In this document: positions 2,214-28,867 of the stretch, one piece after another
Numbering within the stretch: the first letter of the stretch is position 1
Layout of the letters: each line of letters begins with the position of its first letter
The notes under the pieces: generated by a model
The model's input: only the letters and a program-made list of their open reading frames with translations
Databases searched by the model: none
Told to the model about the DNA's origin: nothing
Origin: [Bacillus] selenitireducens MLS10
Lineage (GTDB): Bacteria > Bacillota > Bacilli > Bacillales > Salisediminibacteriaceae
NCBI RefSeq assembly: GCF_000093085.1
Contig: NC_014219.1
Coordinates: 1,634,384-1,666,383, forward strand
Reading direction: 5' to 3'
Length of the DNA stretch: 32,000 nt
Made by a program: the position numbers and the translations under genes

Positions 2214-3275
2214 ATGACAACGCTAGTATTTTTTTTCATTGGCTGGGCTCTTTTGTTTGTCCTGCTCCTGCTCTTACCTTCCATTTTTAACAGAAAAGTA
2301 ACGGCAACCCTTGCCGGGATCTCCGGGCTTCTTGCGCTTTTTGTCATCGCCACGGAAATGTTCGTGTCCTGGCAGATGGCGGTCGGCGCAGGGCTTCTTC
2401 TGACCGTGGTGACAAGCTTCCTCACGGCAAGACGGGTGGAGGTATTGGACGATGAGATCGACGGGGAAGAGTCGGCTGTACCGGCACTTTACGAACCGGT
2501 ATCACGCCGCGATCCGGAACCTGATCCTGAAACGGAATCAGCTGTCCAGGAAACAGGAGAACAGGCAAACGATGTAGATGCATCAGAGTCGGAGGAATCC
2601 GGCGCAGTTGCAGGAATGGACGAGACATCACAGTCCGAAGCGGAAGAGGCTGAGGAAGCATCTGAGCCCCAGGAAACTCCTGAGATGGATGAAGAAGACA
2701 AATCCACGATGGCGGAGGTGGAACTGGCATCAGATCCTGCAAAAGGCATCGGCGAGTCCCCTATACAAGAAGAGGAAGAGGAGACACCGGACGAAGCGGA
2801 AGGTGAGATCCCGAGACGGTTTGTTGTCGAGGCGGATGAAGAGGATCATGAGGCTCCGTCTGATGCAGATGATGAGGACGAAGCCGAAGAAGAAGCGGGT
2901 GCGAGCCGGCTGATGCATCAAGACGGGGAATCGTCCCTTACCGAGCGGCGGCCGTTAAATGAAGAGGATGAGGAGCCGATTATGAAGCGGTCGTCATCGA
3001 TTGATGTGGAAGAATTCAGCGAAGAAGCAGGCGATAAGGAGGCACCGGAGGAAGAAGAGCCGGAAGAAATGCCTTCTGTCACGGATCCGCATGATGTGAA
3101 TGAGAAACGGAAGCGCCTTTTTGAGGCCTTGGCCGATAAAGACGATGATGAAGCAGGGGGCAGGACAAATGAAAAAATCCTTTTTAGCAGTACTTCTCGT
3201 TACGGCGATGAGTGTGGTGTTTCTCACAACCTTTACATATGCCATGACGTTTACGTACGAAGTGCTGTTCTCTGA
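2214..3275 (+). CDS. Membrane-anchored, extremely acidic low-complexity protein (about 3 TM helices, then ~270 aa of D/E-rich sequence)
   Basis: GAGGTG RBS 5 nt before ATG 2214. The N-terminus is hydrophobic (LVFFFIGWALLFVLLLLL...) and is followed by a long D/E/P/S-rich tract. The 3' end overlaps the next gene by 107 nt in another frame, so the exact end is uncertain. Confidence 0.6.
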   Translation: MTTLVFFFIGWALLFVLLLLLPSIFNRKVTATLAGISGLLALFVIATEMFVSWQMAVGAGLLLTVVTSFLTARRVEVLDDEIDGEESAVPALYEPVSRRDPEPDPETESAVQETGEQANDVDASESEESGAVAGMDETSQSEAEEAEEASEPQETPEMDEEDKSTMAEVELASDPAKGIGESPIQEEEEETPDEAEGEIPRRFVVEADEEDHEAPSDADDEDEAEEEAGASRLMHQDGESSLTERRPLNEEDEEPIMKRSSSIDVEEFSEEAGDKEAPEEEEPEEMPSVTDPHDVNEKRKRLFEALADKDDDEAGGRTNEKILFSSTSRYGDECGVSHNLYICHDVYVRSAVL

Positions 3276-4671: not shown

Positions 4672-6354
4672 ATGGGGGCAACCATAATGGCAAAACAGCG
4701 AAAGCGGATTGGGGACCTGCTTGTGGAAGCGGGTCTCCTCACAGAACAGCAGGTACAGGACGTACTGAAGGTCAAGGGGAGTGAGAAACTCGGGGATGCA
4801 CTGATCTCAAGGGATTATATTACGGAAAATCAGCTCATTGAAGTCCTCGAATTCCAGCTTGGGATTCCCCATGTGCACATCAATCAGCAACCGGTGGATG
4901 AATCGGTGATCCGCCTGATCCCGAGGGACTTCGCCGCACGAAATGAAGTCTTTCCGATACAGAAAAAGAACAATCAGCTCCAGGTGGCGATGAGTGATCC
5001 GATGGACTATGTGACCCTTGAAGACATTCGCATGTCCACGGGGTTCGAAGTCGATCCGGTCATTTCCGGAAGAAGAGAGATCCAGCAGGCGATTGAGCGC
5101 TACTATGATGATCAGGACGGGGATCTGGACCTCGATATCGAAGATCAGGAAGACGACACCATCATCAGCGCCAACGTGGATGCGGAGAACGAGGACGATG
5201 CGCCGATTATCCGTCTCGTTAATAAGGTCCTCGTCAAAGCTGTCGCCAAAGGGGCGTCTGACGTTCATATTGATCCACAGGAGAAGAAGGTCATCGTCCG
5301 GTACCGGGTGGACGGCGTTCTGATGACGGATCGGGCCGTTCCGAAGTCCGATCATAATGCCGTCGTGGCACGAATCAAAATTATGGCGAACCTGAACATT
5401 ACCGAAACCCGCCTGCCGCAGGGCGGACGGGTAAAAGTGTCCATTGAAGGTCGCCCCGTCGATCTGCGGATCGCGACCCTTGCCACCGTATTCGGAGAGA
5501 AGATCGTGATCCGGATCCTTGACATGGACAATGCCGTCAAGGACGTCTCGGAGATCGACCTGAATAAAATCAATCTCGATAAATTCAGACGGCTGATCAA
5601 ACGCCCGTCCGGGATGGTGCTCATTACCGGTCCGACGGGTTCGGGGAAGACGACGACGCTCTATGCGGCGATGACCGCTCTCAATACGCCGGACGTGAAC
5701 CTGATTACCATCGAAGACCCGGTGGAGTACCAGGTCAAGGGGATCAATCAGGTCCAGGTCAATGCGCCGATCGGCCTCACGTTTGCAAGAGGGCTCCGGT
5801 CGATTTTGAGGCAGGACCCGAATATCGTCATGATCGGCGAGATTCGGGATAAGGAAACGGCAGAGATTGCAATCCGTGCTTCCCTCACAGGTCACCTCGT
5901 CTTCAGTACGATTCACACGAACAGTGCCATCGGCACGATTCCGAGACTGATCGACATGGGGATTGAACCGTTCCTCGTCATGAGTTCCCTATCGGGGATC
6001 GTCTCCCAGCGTCTCGTGAGGAAGGTGTGCGCAGAATGCGGGGAGGACTACGAACCGACGGAGAACGAGCGGGCGATGTTCGACAAACGGGGTATACCCC
6101 TTACGAGACTTCGAAGAGGGAAAGGCTGCCCGATCTGTAATGAGACGGGCTACAAGGGCCGCATGGCCATTCATGAAGTGCTCGAAATCGATGACAAGAT
6201 CCGTCGCATGGTGATGAACAACCAGCCGATGGAGGATGTCCGGCTCTATGCGATGGAGCATGACATGATCTTCTTACTTGAAGACGGTCTCTTAAAGGTG
6301 AAACAGGGCAAGACGAGTCTTGAAGAACTTTACCGCGTAGCCATGGACGACTGA
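4672..6354 (+). CDS. pilB: Type IV pilus assembly (extension) ATPase PilB, GspE family
   Basis: Walker A GPTGSGKTTT, Asp box, His box and a tetracysteine CAECG...CPICNETGYKGR. The N-terminus has a GSPII_E_N/MshEN-like domain. ATG 4687 is an alternative start with better spacing to the GGATGGGGG RBS. Confidence 0.93.
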   Translation: MGATIMAKQRKRIGDLLVEAGLLTEQQVQDVLKVKGSEKLGDALISRDYITENQLIEVLEFQLGIPHVHINQQPVDESVIRLIPRDFAARNEVFPIQKKNNQLQVAMSDPMDYVTLEDIRMSTGFEVDPVISGRREIQQAIERYYDDQDGDLDLDIEDQEDDTIISANVDAENEDDAPIIRLVNKVLVKAVAKGASDVHIDPQEKKVIVRYRVDGVLMTDRAVPKSDHNAVVARIKIMANLNITETRLPQGGRVKVSIEGRPVDLRIATLATVFGEKIVIRILDMDNAVKDVSEIDLNKINLDKFRRLIKRPSGMVLITGPTGSGKTTTLYAAMTALNTPDVNLITIEDPVEYQVKGINQVQVNAPIGLTFARGLRSILRQDPNIVMIGEIRDKETAEIAIRASLTGHLVFSTIHTNSAIGTIPRLIDMGIEPFLVMSSLSGIVSQRLVRKVCAECGEDYEPTENERAMFDKRGIPLTRLRRGKGCPICNETGYKGRMAIHEVLEIDDKIRRMVMNNQPMEDVRLYAMEHDMIFLLEDGLLKVKQGKTSLEELYRVAMDD

Positions 6355-6396: not shown

Positions 6397-7428
6397 GTGA
6401 AAGAACGGATTGAAGAGCTACTCAGAAAGGCATTCTATGATGGTGCGTCAGATTTGCATATTACCGTGGGTGTGCCCCCGGTCATGCGGACGAACGGTGA
6501 ACTTGAGAAGGTCGGGACCGACATGATGAAACCGGCGGACACGGAAGGGATGGCCCGAGCGATCATTCCGGAAGCGCTCTGGAAGAACTTTGAGAAGAAG
6601 GGGGAGCTCGACTTCTCCTATGGCCTTCGGGGCGTATCCCGCTTTCGGGTGAACGCGTACTTTCAGCGCTCCTGCGTGAGTCTTGCGATCCGCGTGATTC
6701 CGACAGTGATTCCGACGATTGACGATTTGAATATGCCGAAGATCCTGGAATCCATCGCCTCAAAGCCCCAGGGGCTCGTCCTTGTGACCGGACCGACGGG
6801 CTCCGGGAAATCGACGACCCTGGCAGCAATGATCTCATACATGAACACAAGGATGAACCGGCACATCATCACCCTTGAAGATCCGATTGAGTATTTGCAT
6901 AAGCACGGCACGTCGGTGATTGACCAGCGCGAGATCGGCTTTGACACGCAGAACTTCGCCAACGGCCTCCGGGCGGCGCTCCGTCAGGATCCGGATGTGA
7001 TTCTCGTCGGGGAGATGCGGGATCTTGAGACGATCTCCACGGCGATTACCGCGGCGGAAACCGGACACCTCGTCCTCGGTACGCTTCATACGACGAACGC
7101 GCCGTCAACGATTGACCGGATCATTGACGTCTTCCCCCCGGGCCAGCAGGATCAGATCCGCATACAGGTGGCCTCTGTCCTCACGTCGGTCATCTCGCAG
7201 CGTCTTCTTCGCACGAGAGACGGCGGCGGCCGGGTGGCGGCGACGGAGATTCTCATGAATACGCCGGCGGTGAAGAACCTGATCCGAAACGAAAAGATTC
7301 ACCAGATCCCGTCCACGATGCAGACCGGTAAGGCAGAAGGGATGCACACAATGGAGATGGCCGTGAAGGATCTCCTGCAGGAGCGCAAGATCAGTGAAGA
7401 AACGGCAGCTTATATCCTGTCGGAATAA
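6397..7428 (+). CDS. pilT: Type IV pilus retraction ATPase PilT
   Basis: 343 aa with a GTG start. Motifs are GPTGSGKSTT, the typical PilT LRQDPDVILVGEMRD and GHLVLGTLHT, and the AIRNLIRE-like box (AVKNLIRNEK). Confidence 0.93.
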   Translation: MKERIEELLRKAFYDGASDLHITVGVPPVMRTNGELEKVGTDMMKPADTEGMARAIIPEALWKNFEKKGELDFSYGLRGVSRFRVNAYFQRSCVSLAIRVIPTVIPTIDDLNMPKILESIASKPQGLVLVTGPTGSGKSTTLAAMISYMNTRMNRHIITLEDPIEYLHKHGTSVIDQREIGFDTQNFANGLRAALRQDPDVILVGEMRDLETISTAITAAETGHLVLGTLHTTNAPSTIDRIIDVFPPGQQDQIRIQVASVLTSVISQRLLRTRDGGGRVAATEILMNTPAVKNLIRNEKIHQIPSTMQTGKAEGMHTMEMAVKDLLQERKISEETAAYILSE

Positions 7429-7487: not shown

Positions 7488-8696
7488 ATGGCTTACTATC
7501 AATACGAAGCCCGCTCGAAGCAGGGCGAGCTTGTCTCCGGCAAAATCAAAGCCGATTCAAAGCTGCAGGCAGAGCGTAAACTGACGGATGAGAAGGGTGT
7601 CAATGTCTTGAACCTCAGTCAGATGGAAGGCATTCTCTATCAGGATATCGAGGTCTTCAGCCGGGTATCGAGCAAGGATATGGTCATCTTCCTGAGGCAG
7701 ATGACGACGCTCTTGACGGCCGGGATTTCCCTCGTCGACAGCGTGCGTCTCCTCGGAGAACAGACCCCAAACAAGGCGCTCCGCTCAGCCCTCGTCGAAG
7801 TGGAGGAAGACCTGAGGCAGGGCATCAGTATGTCCCAGTCCACAGAAAAGCACAGAAAAGTCTTTCAACCGCTCGTTGTGAACATGATCCGCGCCGGGGA
7901 GGCCGGGGGTAACCTCGATGAGATCTTCGAACGCCTCGCCGTTTATTATGAAAAACAGAACCGGATTAAGCAGAAGGTCATCTCCGCCCTCGCCTATCCG
8001 GCCACCCTTGGCGTCATCGCCATCGGGGTCGTCATGTTTCTTCTCGCGGTCGTCGTGCCTAGCTTTGCGGACATGTTCGCGGGCTTTGACAGTGAACTGC
8101 CCTGGATTACGCTGTTTGTCCTCAATGCCGGGGATTGGATGCAGTCGTGGGTATGGCTGATTCTTCTCCTCACGGTGGCCGCGATCTTCGGGATCCGTGC
8201 TGCGCGGAAGAATGACGATATGCGGTATTATCTTGACTATTTCATGTTAAAGATGCCGATCGTCGGAGGGATTCTTCAAAAATCCGCCCTGGCCAGGATG
8301 TCCAGGACACTGAGTTCACTCTTTACAAGCTCCGTACCCGTCCTGCAGGCGACATCGATCGTTGAGCGGGTCGTGGGGAACGAAGTCCTCGCGAACGTCA
8401 TACGCGACATCCGGACCTCCCTTGAAAAAGGGGAGTCCATGGCCGGACCGATGGAGAAGCACTGGATGTTCCCGCCGCTCGTTGTCCAGATGGTCGTTGT
8501 CGGGGAACGGACCGGTTCTCTTGACCAGATGCTTGACCGTGTGGCACTCTTCTATGAGGAGGAAGTGGATCAGGCAGCGGAGAGGCTGAAGAGTCTCATG
8601 GAGCCGATGCTTATTGCCGTTCTCGCCGTTGTAGTCGGGGTCATCGTCGCATCCATCGCCATCCCGATGTTTGAAATCTTTGACACGATTGGATAA
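7488..8696 (+). CDS. pilC: Type IV pilus platform protein PilC (GspF family)
   Basis: 402 aa with two GspF repeats (...VNMIRAGEAGGNLD..., ...VQMVVVGERTGSLD...) and 3 TM segments. GGAAAGGAGG RBS. Confidence 0.92.
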   Translation: MAYYQYEARSKQGELVSGKIKADSKLQAERKLTDEKGVNVLNLSQMEGILYQDIEVFSRVSSKDMVIFLRQMTTLLTAGISLVDSVRLLGEQTPNKALRSALVEVEEDLRQGISMSQSTEKHRKVFQPLVVNMIRAGEAGGNLDEIFERLAVYYEKQNRIKQKVISALAYPATLGVIAIGVVMFLLAVVVPSFADMFAGFDSELPWITLFVLNAGDWMQSWVWLILLLTVAAIFGIRAARKNDDMRYYLDYFMLKMPIVGGILQKSALARMSRTLSSLFTSSVPVLQATSIVERVVGNEVLANVIRDIRTSLEKGESMAGPMEKHWMFPPLVVQMVVVGERTGSLDQMLDRVALFYEEEVDQAAERLKSLMEPMLIAVLAVVVGVIVASIAIPMFEIFDTIG

Positions 8697-8762
8697 AGAC
8701 CTGCATGAATGAATAGAAATGGGTCAAAAGAACCTAAAAGACAGAAGAAACGCAGAAAAAGA

Positions 8763-8791
8763 TAGCAGACAGGTGCCAATCCGTGTATAAT
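8763..8791 (+). promoter_or_regulatory. Candidate promoter for the pilin leader (perfect -10, weak -35)
   Basis: TATAAT at 8786-8791. The hexamer 17 nt upstream is only TAGCAG (8763-8768). No terminator is visible after pilC, so read-through from pilC is also possible. Confidence 0.3.
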
Positions 8792-8871
8792 AGAGTCAGG
8801 ATAACGCACAAAATTGACAAAAACAGTCTAAAGTAATTGAGTGGAAAAATAATCGTTAACGTGAACCGTCA

Positions 8872-8982
8872 GTCTGAGGATTGAAGCTGGATCAGGGGTA
8901 ACGACAATTGGATGCTGAGAAGAAATGGGTACTATCTGGGCACTTAACCATTTTGGAGCTGCTAGTGCAACCGGCCGGAGAC
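8872..8982 (+). promoter_or_regulatory. Candidate c-di-GMP-II riboswitch aptamer in the 5' leader of the pilin genes (core 8921-8978; outer boundary uncertain)
   Basis: Four ordered blocks are present: AAATGGGT (8923-8930), TGGGCACTT (8937-8945), CATTTTGG (8949-8956) and TAGTGCAACCG (8963-8973). They reproduce, with the same 6-nt spacing between the first two, the core of the class II c-di-GMP aptamer as I remember it (...GAAUGGGUUUAAAUUGGGCACUUGACUCAUUUUGAGUUAGUAGUGCAACCGACCG...). GCACT and AGTGC can pair. P1 could not be assigned cleanly. Confidence 0.7.
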
Positions 8983-9007
8983 ATTTTTTTGTTTTGGCCG
9001 GTTTTTT
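8969..9007 (+). terminator. Intrinsic terminator acting as the riboswitch expression platform
   Basis: AACCGGCC (8969-8976) pairs with GGCCGGTT (8996-9003) and is followed by a T-run to 9007. The 5' arm is the conserved 3' end of the aptamer core. Confidence 0.6.
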
Positions 9008-9062
9008 ATATTCATTGATTGGGATTGATTCCGTACGAATTTTGTACTTCTTATAGGGGGGG

Positions 9063-9551
9063 ATGAAGATGAGGTTACGGATCAAAAGAACCGGAAACCA
9101 AAAAGGACTTACACTCGTTGAACTGCTCGCGGTCATCGTGATTCTCGGGATTATTGCGGCGATAGCTGTTCCGGCCATCGGATCGATTATCGAAAATTCC
9201 CGAAAAGACGCTCAGATTGCCAACGCCGAAAATATATACAATGCAGCAAGGCTGGCTGTTGCGTCAGAGAGCATTGTTGCATCGGACACGGATACGTGGA
9301 CTTTTTACGCAACTGAAGCCGAGACAGATAATACAGATACCTCGAGAACGGACAGCAGACTCAATCTCCTCGAAGAACGGTATCTGGACACCACTCCGCA
9401 GGATCCGCACGGAGACGGCGTGTATACAGATGCTTATATTACTTACGATGGCAGTGAGTACACGGTTGTTTTAAATGAATATTTCGGTGCAGGTGGCACC
9501 GCGATTTCCACAATCCGCTCGAGTGACCGGGATATCGTGAACCTGGATTAA
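9063..9551 (+). CDS. pilA: Type IV prepilin (pilin 1)
   Basis: Class III signal peptide ...NQKG|LTLVELLAVIVILGIIAAIAVP with Glu at +5. G-rich RBS at 9055-9062. ATG 9069 is an alternative start. Confidence 0.9.
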   Translation: MKMRLRIKRTGNQKGLTLVELLAVIVILGIIAAIAVPAIGSIIENSRKDAQIANAENIYNAARLAVASESIVASDTDTWTFYATEAETDNTDTSRTDSRLNLLEERYLDTTPQDPHGDGVYTDAYITYDGSEYTVVLNEYFGAGGTAISTIRSSDRDIVNLD

Positions 9552-9661
9552 GGAAGCTTCACATCAGAAAGCCGTTCTGACGGGAGTGGTCGTCCATTTT
9601 GATTGGGGATTACTTCATGAAGAACATCAAATAAAATATATTAAAAAAGGGAGAGATAAAC

Positions 9662-10132
9662 ATGAAAAAATGGTTGAAGAATCAAAAAGGTTTGACGCTT
9701 GTTGAACTGTTGGCAGTCATCGTGATTTTGGGGATCATTGCAGCGATTGCCGTTCCGGCGATTGGGAACATCATTGAGAACAGCAGGAAAGACGCGCAGA
9801 TTGCGAATGCGGAGGCATTGTATGATGCGGCAAGATTGGCACAGGCTGGGGATAATATAAGTGGGGATGTTACGTTTATTGCAGTTGAAGAAAATGATGA
9901 TAATTATATTGTGCCTCCCGAAAATGATAATACAGATGAATATTCACTAGTTAATTACATCGAATCTTCTTTTCCGGAAAGTGACTCGTTCAGTGATAGC
10001 TATATTAGTGCAGTAGTAGCTGTTGTGGATGGCGAGTATACAATTACTCTTGAAGGGCTTGAAGGGACGTATATTGATGCTACGATCCAAGAAATAAGAG
10101 AAGATGGACGAGATGTTGTTGAAGCTCCGTAA
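9662..10132 (+). CDS. Type IV prepilin (pilin 2, paralog of pilin 1)
   Basis: MKKWLKNQKG|LTLVELLAVIVILGIIAAIAVPAIGNIIENSRKDAQIANAE is nearly identical at protein level to pilin 1 for about 55 aa. The C-terminal domain is divergent and AT-rich. AAGGGAGAG RBS. Confidence 0.9.
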   Translation: MKKWLKNQKGLTLVELLAVIVILGIIAAIAVPAIGNIIENSRKDAQIANAEALYDAARLAQAGDNISGDVTFIAVEENDDNYIVPPENDNTDEYSLVNYIESSFPESDSFSDSYISAVVAVVDGEYTITLEGLEGTYIDATIQEIREDGRDVVEAP

Positions 10133-10174
10133 TCAATAATTATATATATAGTTTTTCGCCGATTTCAACCAGCT

Positions 10175-10204
10175 CTTCAGGAGTATTCCTGAGGGGCTTT
10201 TTTC
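10175..10204 (+). terminator. Intrinsic terminator after the pilin pair
   Basis: CTTCAGGA-gtat-TCCTGAGG stem followed by GGC and TTTTTT. Confidence 0.75.
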
Positions 10205-10288: not shown

Positions 10289-11050
10289 GTGGATGGGTTG
10301 TGGTTCACCTATTTTGTCATTACCGGACTTGTAATGGGCTCCTTTTATAACGTTGTCGGCCTCCGCGTCCCTGCCGGCGAATCCTTTACCGGCAAGGCCC
10401 GATCCAAATGCCCGTCATGCGGGAAAACACTCGGTGCACCGGAACTGATCCCGGTCCTTTCCTGGTTCTTGTTACGGGGAAGATGCAAGGGCTGCGGGAA
10501 GCGGATCTCCCCGATGTATCCCCTGATGGAGCTTGTTACCGGGGTCTTGTTTGGTCTGGCCTTTTTACATATCGGGCTCAGTATGGAGCTTGTCGTGGCA
10601 TTGCTCTTCTTGTCGATGCTCGTGATCATTACGGTGAGTGACCTCTCAACGATGCTTATTCCTGACAAGGTGCTGCTTTTTTTCGGGATACCGATCCTTC
10701 TCTTACGTATGTCGGTGGCGCCTTTGGATCCTTGGTGGACAGCCTTTGCCGGTGCCGGGCTTGGATTTGGTATTTTGCTTCTTCTCGCAGTCGCGTCACG
10801 CGGCGGAATGGGAGGAGGGGATATTAAACTTTACCTCGTCATCGGTTTTGTGCTCGGACCGATCGAGACGGTGCTGTCACTGTTTCTCGCGGCACTCGTG
10901 GGACTCGTGTATGGCCTTCCCCGAATTGTGAAGAGACAGACGGGGCGTGGGAATCCGATTCCATTCGGTCCGTTTATTGCCCTCGGGGCTGTGATCGCCT
11001 ACTTTATGGGGGGTGCGATCCTTGACTGGTATGTCGGTTTGCTCTTTTAA
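10289..11050 (+). CDS. pilD: Prepilin peptidase / N-methyltransferase (A24 family)
   Basis: GTG start 8 nt after AAAGGAGA. It has the zinc-finger CPSCG...CKGCG, both catalytic Asp contexts (TVSDLSTMLIPD and GGGDIKL) and about 6-8 TM helices. It is positionally equivalent to B. subtilis comC. Confidence 0.92.
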   Translation: MDGLWFTYFVITGLVMGSFYNVVGLRVPAGESFTGKARSKCPSCGKTLGAPELIPVLSWFLLRGRCKGCGKRISPMYPLMELVTGVLFGLAFLHIGLSMELVVALLFLSMLVIITVSDLSTMLIPDKVLLFFGIPILLLRMSVAPLDPWWTAFAGAGLGFGILLLLAVASRGGMGGGDIKLYLVIGFVLGPIETVLSLFLAALVGLVYGLPRIVKRQTGRGNPIPFGPFIALGAVIAYFMGGAILDWYVGLLF

Positions 11051-11119: not shown

Positions 11120-11155
11120 GGCACGGATCAAGACCGGTAGTACCGGATCGGTGCC
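11120..11155 (+). promoter_or_regulatory. Imperfect inverted repeat / hairpin in the pilM leader
   Basis: GGCACGGATC..CCGGTA-g-TACCGG-ATCGGTGCC lies downstream of a TGtTAGAAT extended -10-like box at about 11099-11107. Confidence 0.3.
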
Positions 11156-11204
11156 AAAGACCCGAAACAATCGTGTATGTCAGAGAGAAGGCAGGGATGC
11201 AGGA

Positions 11205-12188
11205 ATGGATATCGTATTAAACAAACCGACGAAGCATGTCATGATCATCCACGATCACGTCATTCGCTACGTGAAAGGAAGAGGGAGCACCCTTGACGAT
11301 CTGAAGGTCGTGCGGAACCGTTTTTTGCCCCCCGGGACGATCGAGGGTGGCGTCATTAAAGAGACGGAAACGTTTCAGGCGATCATCGGTGAACTGAAGC
11401 GGCAATACAAGATGGCGAAGGGTGAACTGTACATAACGCTGCCGAATGAGACGAACCTCATCCGGCGTCACCAGGTACCGGCGGATGTGCCGGATCACGA
11501 ACTGAAGGGGTATATCTTCAATCAGCTTGGGAAAGAATTGCATTTGCCGATGGAAGACCCTGTTTTTGATCTCTGTATCATGAGTGAACAGAATGCCGAG
11601 AAGGATCTCCTCTTGTTCATCACAGCCCAGGAGATCATTGACAGCTATTTGCGTCTCTTTTACGAACTGAAGCTTGAACCGGTGGTCTTGGATTACGCGG
11701 CGATTTCCCTTGAGCGCTTCATTGAAGGAACCGGGGCTGCGTCTGTCGAGGGGCATTACGCCCTCGTGACGTGCTTTCCTACCGCCGTGACGGTGACGAT
11801 CTTTCACGGTGAGTTCCCGCTGATCACGCGAACGATCCCCACCATGGTGAGTGCGGATCATTGGCAGGTGAACGGGGAAGCGAGCGATGACATTAGCTGG
11901 ACGGGTCCGATGGATGAACTGGAGAGCGCTTGGCAAGACAACGGGGCGGAGATCGAGCGTCTGTTATCCTTTTACCAGTTCAACTACCGGCAGGGAGAAG
12001 GCGGCGTGGACCGGGTCATCATAACGGGTGATCATCCGGAGCTGAACCGGTTCTTCCATCACGTTTCGGAGCGTCTTGACGGGCCTGATGTGAAGCTTCT
12101 TGACGTTATGATGGATAAAAAAGGCTTTACGATTGACCCTCACCACTTCGAAGCCGTGGGATTACTGATGAAGGGTGAGGTGAAGTAA
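11205..12188 (+). CDS. pilM: Type IV pilus assembly protein PilM (actin-like ATPase fold)
   Basis: I prefer ATG 11205 (MDIVLNKPT...) with an upstream GAGAAGGCAGGG RBS. The ORF-track GTG 11151 lies inside the leader hairpin. Size and position before pilN/pilO fit PilM. Confidence 0.85.
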   Translation: MDIVLNKPTKHVMIIHDHVIRYVKGRGSTLDDLKVVRNRFLPPGTIEGGVIKETETFQAIIGELKRQYKMAKGELYITLPNETNLIRRHQVPADVPDHELKGYIFNQLGKELHLPMEDPVFDLCIMSEQNAEKDLLLFITAQEIIDSYLRLFYELKLEPVVLDYAAISLERFIEGTGAASVEGHYALVTCFPTAVTVTIFHGEFPLITRTIPTMVSADHWQVNGEASDDISWTGPMDELESAWQDNGAEIERLLSFYQFNYRQGEGGVDRVIITGDHPELNRFFHHVSERLDGPDVKLLDVMMDKKGFTIDPHHFEAVGLLMKGEVK

Positions 12189-12845
12189 ATGGCTGTTGAG
12201 ATTAATCTGTTACGTAAAGGCACGAAAAAAACCTCAACCTTCCGCTCGGCGATGATTCTCGCCGTTCTCGTCGTGATCCTGATCAATCTACTGATCGTTT
12301 ATGTCGGGGTACAGGCGGACCGGGAAGCGGCGGCTCTTGAACAGGAGCGCCTGATTCTAGAACAACAGGCCGAAGCGCTGAATCAGGAAATTGCCGAGCT
12401 CTCCGTCGGGGAACATCAGCTGTTGTTTGATGCCGTGGATGAAGTGGAAGGGATGATGATTTCGTCTTCACAGCTTCTTTTGGAGATGGTGAGACTCATG
12501 CCGGAAGAAGGCTATATGGTCTCCTATGACTATGTCTATCCGGATACGCTCTCCATGTCATTCATTTATCTTGAGCTTCCGCAGGTCGCGTATTACCTGG
12601 ATGCCCTGACGGCGTCCCCTTATGTCGACAGCGTCGATGTGCAGACGATCACCGGTGAAGCGATGGAAGAAGCGGTCATGGAGGACGCTGAGGCAGAGGA
12701 AGAAGATCTGCCGTTCTGGTATGAAGAGTTCCTCCCGAACTATTTCACAACCTATGACATCACCCTCGATGTCGCGGCTCTGATCGATAGAGATACGGAT
12801 GAAAGCGAAGAAGAGGACGATGAGGAGGGTGATGACGATGAATAG
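12189..12845 (+). CDS. pilN: PilN-like bitopic pilus alignment protein with an acidic C-terminal tail
   Basis: It starts 1 nt after the pilM stop. The N-terminus has the INLL box (MAVEINLLRK), followed by one TM helix and a coiled-coil segment. The poly-D/E C-terminus is atypical. Confidence 0.75.
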   Translation: MAVEINLLRKGTKKTSTFRSAMILAVLVVILINLLIVYVGVQADREAAALEQERLILEQQAEALNQEIAELSVGEHQLLFDAVDEVEGMMISSSQLLLEMVRLMPEEGYMVSYDYVYPDTLSMSFIYLELPQVAYYLDALTASPYVDSVDVQTITGEAMEEAVMEDAEAEEEDLPFWYEEFLPNYFTTYDITLDVAALIDRDTDESEEEDDEEGDDDE

Positions 12846-13602
12846 ACGGGAACGTGTTCTGCTTTATATCGTCTTCGGACTTATTGCCCTTGCAAGTTTT
12901 TACGGATCGTATACGCTGGTGACAGGACCCGCCATCGATGAGCGTGACCGCCTCGAGCGGAGCGTGGAAGCGGAAGAGGCTCAGGTCGATGCCCTCGAGG
13001 TCCAGCTTCTTGAGCGCCAGCGGGAATTTGAAGCGGGGGATACGAATACGGTGAATGCCCAGCGGAAGATGCCGGTTCCGCCGTTGACCGATCAGGTGCT
13101 CCTCGGGCTGAATCAGGCGCAGGAACTGAGTGGTGCCGTGATCCAGGACATCTTCATCAGTACGGAAGACGTGGTTGAACCTTTGCATCTCCTTACTGCG
13201 GAGGAAGACGAAGCGGCCGGAGGGCAGACGGCGGAGGATCTGATCGCAGAGAGCGAAGGAGAGGCGCCGCCTGAGGAGACGGATCCTGCGGAAGAGGCTG
13301 TGGAAAACACGGCTCTTGACGGGGTGCACCGTCAGATCTTCACCCTCGACGTGAAGGTAAATGCCTATGAGCGTCTGGCTGCGTTTTTGAATGAGCTTGA
13401 GGCCCTTGATCGCATCATGAATGTGGAGATGATCTATTTCACCGGGGCTGACGAGGTACAGATTTTCGAAGGGGACAGTGATATCTTTTTTGAAGTCACC
13501 GTCGCGACGTACCATTATCCGGGGCTTGATTCCCTCTTGGATGAGACCCCTGAACCGCATTACCTGCCGTCACCGAACCGTGACCAGCCGTTTTCAGACT
13601 GA
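12838..13602 (+). CDS. pilO: PilO-like bitopic pilus alignment protein
   Basis: ATG 12838 overlaps the pilN stop (ATGAATAG). The protein starts MNRRERVLLYIVFGLIALASF (TM helix), followed by a coiled coil and an alpha/beta C-terminal domain. The call rests mainly on architecture and gene order. Confidence 0.65.
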   Translation: MNRRERVLLYIVFGLIALASFYGSYTLVTGPAIDERDRLERSVEAEEAQVDALEVQLLERQREFEAGDTNTVNAQRKMPVPPLTDQVLLGLNQAQELSGAVIQDIFISTEDVVEPLHLLTAEEDEAAGGQTAEDLIAESEGEAPPEETDPAEEAVENTALDGVHRQIFTLDVKVNAYERLAAFLNELEALDRIMNVEMIYFTGADEVQIFEGDSDIFFEVTVATYHYPGLDSLLDETPEPHYLPSPNRDQPFSD

Positions 13603-28094: not shown

Positions 28095-28200
28095 GTTAGT
28101 TGTTTGGATGCACCCAAAGAACTGCAACCGCACAGATCAGGTTTGGTTTCCATGTAAGCACATTCGTGCACCTGTAATGGCGAGTCTGAGTATTGAAGGA
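28095..28200 (+). promoter_or_regulatory. Long 5' leader of rplU, positionally equivalent to the Bacillales L21 leader
   Basis: About 115 nt lie between the promoter and the AGGAGG RBS, with several short hairpins (TTTGG/CCAAA, GCAC/GTGC). I could not verify the family consensus by eye. Confidence 0.4.
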
Positions 28201-28531: not shown

Positions 28532-28867
28532 ATGATCAAAGTTCATTTCGAACGGCAATCAGACGGCACGATCCGCGCTTTTACAATGAACGGACACGCG
28601 GACTCAGGGCCTTATGGCTATGATCTCGTATGCGCCGGTGCATCAGCGGTTTCCTTCGGGGCTGTGAATGCCATTGCAGAAGTCGCAGGCGTTGAGTTAG
28701 ATGCAGAAGTAAGAGATAATGGCGGCTTTCTTCACTGTACGGTTCCGGAGGGGATCCGGGACGAAGCAGGTAAGAAGGTCCAGGTACTGCTTGAGGGATT
28801 ACGGATTTCATTGTTGACAATGGAAGAGCAGTACGGCCGGTTTATACACGTAACCGATGTAAACTGA
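28532..28867 (+). CDS. ysxB: Ribosomal-processing cysteine protease Prp (YsxB family)
   Basis: 111 aa between rplU and rpmA. The conserved GHA...DLVCAGASA context holds the His/Cys dyad. Confidence 0.85.
   Translation: MIKVHFERQSDGTIRAFTMNGHADSGPYGYDLVCAGASAVSFGAVNAIAEVAGVELDAEVRDNGGFLHCTVPEGIRDEAGKKVQVLLEGLRISLLTMEEQYGRFIHVTDVN

Follow-up and report, generated by a model that had tools for sequence, protein, structure and literature searches.

A predicted class II c-di-GMP riboswitch with an overlapping terminator in the type IV pilin leader of Salisediminibacterium selenitireducens and other Bacillaceae

c-di-GMP riboswitches and type IV pilins

The class II c-di-GMP riboswitch family (RF01786) was reportedly described by Lee et al. 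in 2010, and its crystal structures come from Clostridium acetobutylicum. According to reviews, class II c-di-GMP riboswitches are typical of clostridia and Deinococcus (PMC9495176, PMC12564702). In Clostridioides difficile the class II riboswitch Cdi-2-4 (Cdi2_4) lies before pilA1, where c-di-GMP leads to read-through and its absence to termination, and all four class II switches of this species are ON switches (PMC6366702, PMC6200980, PMC11477304). Only 11 of the 16 predicted c-di-GMP riboswitches of C. difficile are functional (PMC6366702), and prediction alone therefore does not prove function. Closer to the species studied here, the class I c-di-GMP riboswitch Bc2 of Bacillus thuringiensis is an ON switch which acts by antitermination before the cap gene (PMC4933901, PMC6366702).

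We analysed a window of 32,000 nt from the genome of Salisediminibacterium selenitireducens (formerly Bacillus selenitireducens MLS10), and all coordinates given are positions in this window. The PilC encoded in the window matches the protein of this species at 100% identity. The NCBI taxonomy places the species in the Bacillaceae, the family to which an earlier note on this DNA had assigned the type IV pilus (T4P) locus. The same note had likened the pilin leader to that of pilA1, with a class II aptamer and an overlapping terminator as in Cdi-2-4, and this likeness stands: both place a class II aptamer ahead of a major type IV pilin gene, within its leader, both have a terminator in the ligand-free RNA (predicted in our case), and in both, control falls mainly on one or more pilin genes, while read-through may reach other pil genes as well. 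The differences are that the host here belongs to the Bacillaceae and not to Clostridium, being haloalkaliphilic and aerobic or facultative, that the riboswitch comes after pilB-pilT-pilC within the cluster whereas Cdi-2-4 is at the cluster head, that two tandem pilin genes here end at a terminator of their own (10171-10204), and that P1 is much weaker and function is predicted only. With the RF01786 family as a whole the element shares a full-length covariance model match, the conserved core, a covarying P3 and the pseudoknot complementarity, whereas the distal P1 shows little pairing in this lineage, and the presence of the element in 15 of the 25 Bacillaceae T4P loci examined contrasts with the range given in the reviews. 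Like Bc2 it is a c-di-GMP riboswitch in the Bacillaceae, Bc2 turning on an adhesion-related surface protein, but Bc2 is a GEMM-I element (RF01051) with another target gene, and the pilin leader has no GEMM-I match. We consider it very probable that the pilin leader contains, at 8901-8984, a true c-di-GMP aptamer of class II, and that this aptamer drives a terminator-based ON switch.

Aptamer and terminator in the pilC-pilin gap

The gap between pilC and the first pilin gene (8697-9062) measures 366 nt and is, as had been pointed out before, by far the longest junction in the pil cluster, the next longest being 156 nt and the others 42, 59, 110 and 100 nt (Table 1). Two minus-strand open reading frames overlapping the riboswitch (8828-9178 and 8570-8809) lack a Pfam match and were judged spurious. 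Scanning the whole window with Rfam 15 at gathering thresholds gave two matches. One was a ribosomal protein L21 leader (RF00559) at 28116-28197 (+), an ordinary element (54.8 bits, gathering score 36) which sits 5' of the rplU region, with the Prp protease gene at 28532-28867. The other, RF01786 on the plus strand, covers model positions 1-84 (full length) and scores 53.9 bits (E = 2.1e-9), the gathering score being 53.5; this margin of just 0.4 bits is small because P1 scores poorly. Control of the pilins by a c-di-GMP-I riboswitch was ruled out by the lack of a c-di-GMP-I (GEMM) match in 8650-9100, even at E <= 10, and the same permissive scan gave no other credible family besides RF01786.

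The earlier note had suggested these two covariance model searches, one as a check and the other as a control, and both came out in favour of its proposal. Equally, the four core blocks it had listed were all found in their places: AAATGGGT (8923-8930), TGGGCACTT (8937-8945), CATTTTGG (8949-8956) and TAGTGCAACCG (8963-8973). Their combined pattern has a single occurrence in the window, and none of 100 dinucleotide shuffles contained it even when two mismatches were permitted. The conserved core of the family (the UGGGCACUU loop, GGAGC and GUGCAACCG.C) is completely present in the window and invariant across the 15 aligned sequences, in which 27 columns do not vary at all.

With regard to the helices, P3 has seven standard pairs in the window and is 94% paired over the 15 sequences, and all 8 of its pairs show compensatory changes, with both sides varying. 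Two of the three P2 pairs are present in the window, and in the clade this helix is 80% paired with two compensatory pairs. The covariation score of the aptamer structure is 0.485 against a shuffle mean of 0.188, with none of 500 shuffles reaching the observed value and slid controls at or below 0.15. GCACU and AGUGC, which would form the pseudoknot of the family's crystal structure, had been proposed to pair, and indeed show perfect 5-bp complementarity and are invariant in 15/15 sequences; as they never vary, they give no covariation evidence. P1 is the weak part of the structure, as had been suspected when no convincing helix could be drawn. In the window there are only four proximal pairs (two G-C and two G-U), 5 of the 11 P1 positions are non-canonical in the Rfam alignment, and across the clade P1 is 56% paired with only the two innermost pairs well kept. 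The candidate P1 put forward instead, 8872-8879 with 8975-8982, has to be given up: neither of the two closest relatives (the metagenomic relative L082 and S. beveridgei) has kept this region, and unconstrained duplex searches, which placed the best 5' partner at unrelated sites from one orthologue to the next, found no conserved alternative P1 among the orthologues.

Table 1. Features of the pil locus and its pilin leader, and RF01786 matches in related pilC loci
Feature	Position in window	Strand	Evidence or description
pilB	4672-6354	+	Pfam T2SSE and MshEN
pilT	6397-7428	+	Pfam T2SSE
pilC	7488-8696	+	Pfam T2SSF, twice
Putative pilin promoter	8763-8791	+	-35 TAGCAG 8763-8768, 17-nt spacer, -10 TATAAT 8786-8791
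c-di-GMP-II (class II) riboswitch aptamer	8901-8984	+	RF01786
P1, proximal part	UUGG 8908-8911 with CCGG 8975-8978	+	Rfam alignment, pair listing
P2	8914-8915 with 8958-8959	+	Rfam alignment, pair listing
P3 hairpin	8922-8928 with 8948-8954	+	Loop bears invariant UGGGCACUU
Pseudoknot arms (presumed)	GCACU 8940-8944 with AGUGC 8964-8968	+	Perfect complementarity
Intrinsic terminator (predicted)	Hairpin 8969-9003, U-run to 9007	+	MFE and centroid folds of 8860-9015
Ribosome-binding site GGGGGGGA of pilin gene 1	~9050-9058	+	5' of gene
Type IV pilin gene 1	9063-9551	+	Pfam N_methyl, E = 1.5e-7
Type IV pilin gene 2	9662-10132	+	Pfam N_methyl, E = 2e-8
Terminator after pilin gene 2	10171-10204	+	12-pair stem, 6 G-C pairs, then TTTTTT
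pilD, prepilin peptidase	10289-11050	+	Pfam Peptidase_A24
pilM	11151-12188	+	Pfam PilM_2
Unnamed ORF	12189-12845	+	Between pilM and pilO-like gene
pilO-like gene	12799-13602	+	Pfam PilO
L001, S. halotolerans			RF01786, 63.8 bits
L002, Alkalicoccus chagannorensis			RF01786, 62.5 bits
L010-L013, four Oceanobacillus species			RF01786, 60-80 bits
L082, metagenomic relative (PilC 96%)			RF01786, 53.1 bits, just below gathering score
L083, S. beveridgei			RF01786, 65.4 bits
L084 and L086, two Alteribacter species			RF01786, 69.9 and 60.1 bits
L085, Bacillus shivajii			RF01786, 69.5 bits
L088, Anaerobacillus arseniciselenatis			RF01786, 65.5 bits
L089, Alkalicoccus halolimnae			RF01786, 61.1 bits
L090, Halalkalibacter nanhaiisediminis			RF01786, 71.5 bits

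The predicted terminator hairpin has 9 + 5 pairs, one bulge and a 6-nt loop, and together with its U-run has 8969-8984 in common with the aptamer. Its 5' arm is made up of the nucleotides just after the pseudoknot and the 3' strand of P1, namely the aptamer's AACCGGCCG (8969-8977), which pairs with 8995-9003. Folding in this way bears out the proposal that the aptamer 3' end AACCGGCC (8969-8976) doubles as the terminator 5' arm, with the complement GGCCGGTT at 8996-9003 and the T-run ending at 9007. As the 5' arm is shared, the aptamer and terminator folds should be mutually exclusive, which gives the ON logic; this exclusivity was also part of the earlier proposal, and the overlap is real and the architecture kept in orthologues. 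On its own the hairpin reaches -19.8 kcal/mol, against -4.7 kcal/mol for the aptamer helices when ligand and pseudoknot are left out of the calculation, and the default state should therefore be termination. The architecture as folded predicts an ON switch. From the end of the aptamer to the first pilin gene there are 78 nt. A consensus promoter and terminator scan of 8400-9400 reported neither the pilin promoter nor the riboswitch terminator, because the terminator is bulged and the -35 box is weak, and both were recovered by folding and alignment instead.

Conservation in related Bacillaceae and alternative readings

For the comparison with relatives we used pilC-centred loci with one genome per species, plus the closest PilC homologues. 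Of the 24 other Bacillaceae loci examined, 14 have an RF01786 match in the interval from pilC to the first pilin gene (53.1-80.5 bits, Table 1), which makes 15 of 25 with the window included, and the block pattern, far from being absent in orthologous leaders, thus recurs at the same junction with compensatory changes. The core pattern was absent from all 66 other loci fetched, 65 of which were non-Bacillaceae pilC loci, and no aptamer was found in the pilC loci of Fredinandcohnia, "Bacillus sp.", Ornithinibacillus, Cytobacillus and Paenalkalicoccus. The Fredinandcohnia and Bacillus sp. loci (L003-L009, ~5200-5360) have a different conserved pilC-pilin spacer of ~150 nt, which contains a TATAAT promoter and a CTAGT...ACTAG inverted repeat and may represent an alternative, protein-based control of pilins.

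In L082 the aptamer (8901-8976) and the terminator 3' arm with the U-run (8996-9007) are 100% identical to the window, whereas the flanking leader is 64-67% and the terminator loop 53% identical; at the level of sequence comparison, this pattern is the mark of selection acting on just those parts which the riboswitch model requires. All 11 non-Oceanobacillus leaders have a terminator hairpin and U-run beginning within the aptamer 3' end, and the terminator arms vary by genus yet stay complementary (GGCCAAUC/GAUUGGUC, GACCAAAU/AUUUGGUC and GGCUAAUUU/AAAUUAGUC).

These data bear on the possibility that the aptamer is a decaying, non-functional relic, with the terminator attenuating constitutively or ending the pilC transcript, and the pilins being blind to c-di-GMP. 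Several points count against the riboswitch model, namely the 0.4-bit margin of a marginal covariance model score (53.9 vs 53.5), the 53.1 bits of L082, a degenerate P1 of four pairs, a P2 with two of three pairs, and a putative promoter ~110 nt from the aptamer unlike in other genera, and non-functional predicted c-di-GMP riboswitches do exist in C. difficile (PMC6366702). However, the aptamer is fully conserved between window and L082 while the flanking leader drops to ~65%, the family core nucleotides are invariant over 15 species and P3 carries compensatory changes, and the weak P1 is common to the clade, including the 60-72-bit copies, and no peculiarity of this one. A terminator which lies 270-310 nt 3' of pilC and reuses aptamer nucleotides in the non-Oceanobacillus leaders is also hard to explain without switching, and we regard a relic as improbable.

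Specificity variants are found in other classes of cyclic-dinucleotide riboswitches, and the aptamer could in principle be functional but respond to a ligand other than c-di-GMP, for instance to some other cyclic dinucleotide; the same has been proposed for variant motifs which resemble c-di-GMP-II. Rfam clan CL00127 joins RF01786 with related models, and lower-scoring overlapping clan matches do occur in the relatives, but RF01786 is the best-scoring clan member at every locus, the strongly conserved positions (UGGGCACUU, GGAGC and GUGCAACCG.C) are all canonical, and pilins together with a nearby GGDEF gene suit c-di-GMP, which leaves another ligand very improbable.

The four Oceanobacillus leaders (L010-L013) have no terminator. 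Instead, the aptamer 3' sequence ACCG(G/A)CC (~5265-5400 of these loci) complements a Shine-Dalgarno sequence GGCGG ~40 nt downstream, which suggests a translational ON version of the same switch logic, and platforms therefore vary within the group. While this could be taken to mean that the main target of the riboswitch is translation or mRNA stability, or that the riboswitch is an OFF switch, such a reading is the least probable of all for the window, where the ribosome-binding site lies ~45 nt past the terminator and is unpaired with the aptamer in the fold, where the terminator 5' arm held in common with the aptamer gives the ON logic, and given that in C. difficile those class II switches which have been studied are of the ON type (PMC6200980). 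The reading as a terminator-based class II ON switch is hence the one we retain. For the aptamer, family membership is established by covariance model, conservation and covariation, as are the overlap with the terminator and the greater stability of the latter; ligand binding, direction of regulation, promoter and physiological outcome are what we infer.

Transcription of the pilin genes and proposed c-di-GMP control of the locus

The putative promoter of the pilin genes combines a weak -35 box with a perfect -10 box, and the window, L082 and S. beveridgei all have the same TATAAT within a spacer that is otherwise 33-67% identical. In other genera the distance from a TATAAT/TACAAT box to the aptamer 3' of it is 15-25 nt, as opposed to ~110 nt in the window, where transcription would start near 8798. 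The resulting leader segment (8798-8900, +) provides ~100 nt extra between promoter and aptamer, with a predicted hairpin at ~8860-8895, and is poorly conserved (64% identical to L082). No terminator was found directly after pilC by the consensus scan, and read-through from pilBTC is therefore also possible. The first pilin has a prepilin leader (...NQKG/LTLVELL). Between the second pilin gene and pilD there is a strong intrinsic terminator (10171-10204), which divides the pil cluster into at least three units and is the probable end of the riboswitch-controlled unit. Most likely the riboswitch governs the two pilin genes, with read-through into pilD-pilMNO being possible.

According to the mechanism which we propose, the pilin transcript would start at the promoter of the pilC-pilin spacer, result from transcription continuing past pilC, or arise in both ways. 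Without ligand, AACCGGCCG (8969-8977) would pair with 8995-9003 to give the strong hairpin with its U-run, and transcription would end at ~9007, ahead of the pilin genes (OFF). With c-di-GMP bound, the same nucleotides would be kept in the aptamer core, as the stretch after the pseudoknot and the 3' strand of P1, the terminator would be blocked and RNA polymerase would enter the pilin genes (9063-10132; ON), and high c-di-GMP would thus translate into more pilin supply and piliation.

Elsewhere in the window there are further genes with a possible connection to c-di-GMP. A GAF-GGDEF gene (441-2183, +), 2.5 kb 5' of pilB, encodes a membrane-anchored protein whose GGEEF motif, at residue 475, is intact and which is likely to be a diguanylate cyclase and could act as local supplier of the riboswitch ligand. 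It is followed by an open reading frame (2214-3275, +) of 353 residues, with a membrane segment at the N-terminus and a body that is very acidic, of low complexity and rich in Glu/Asp; this frame gave no match in a Pfam search and is flanked on its other side by a VanW-like gene. PilB (4672-6354) has two tandem 24-residue repeats at residues 12-62, RIGDLLVEAGLLTEQQVQDVLKVK and KLGDALISRDYITENQLIEVLEFQ, which resemble the MshEN c-di-GMP-binding motif, and the Pfam MshEN match covers residues 63-150. Judging by these motifs, c-di-GMP may have a second input, at the protein level, into the pilus motor through the PilB N-terminus.

A wider reading, which we put forward tentatively and consider rather unlikely to hold in full, is that haloalkaliphilic Bacillaceae exert multilevel c-di-GMP control of T4P within one locus, including P1-independent switching. 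At the first level, the in-cluster class II riboswitch would set pilin supply apart from the PilBTC machinery; as P1 is largely vestigial, switching would proceed by core invasion and not by P1 strand exchange, with the terminator (or the Shine-Dalgarno region in Oceanobacillus) directly invading the ligand-binding core. The PilB N-terminus with its MshEN-like motif would be the second level, and the neighbouring GAF-GGDEF cyclase, as local signal source, the third. If true, this would be a mechanistic class variant and the first c-di-GMP-to-T4P circuit described in Bacilli.

A literature search found no paper on a class II riboswitch in S. selenitireducens or at the T4P locus of any member of the Bacillaceae, nor any on c-di-GMP control of T4P in the Bacillaceae, in line with the earlier note, whose author knew of no such case. 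As the element passes the curated threshold of the Rfam model, it probably already carries a label from automated annotation, and a riboswitch before a pilin gene is conceptually not new; what we describe is apparently an undescribed member of a known riboswitch class, with a known design and a known type of target. Its meaning lies in that c-di-GMP riboswitch control of type IV pili, shown so far only in C. difficile, would be extended to many Bacillaceae (Salisediminibacterium, Alteribacter, Alkalicoccus, Anaerobacillus, Halalkalibacter, Oceanobacillus and B. shivajii). This gives a testable handle on the timing of pilus production in environmental bacilli, and also a natural series in which one aptamer is joined either to a terminator or, as suggested for Oceanobacillus, to a platform sequestering the Shine-Dalgarno sequence.
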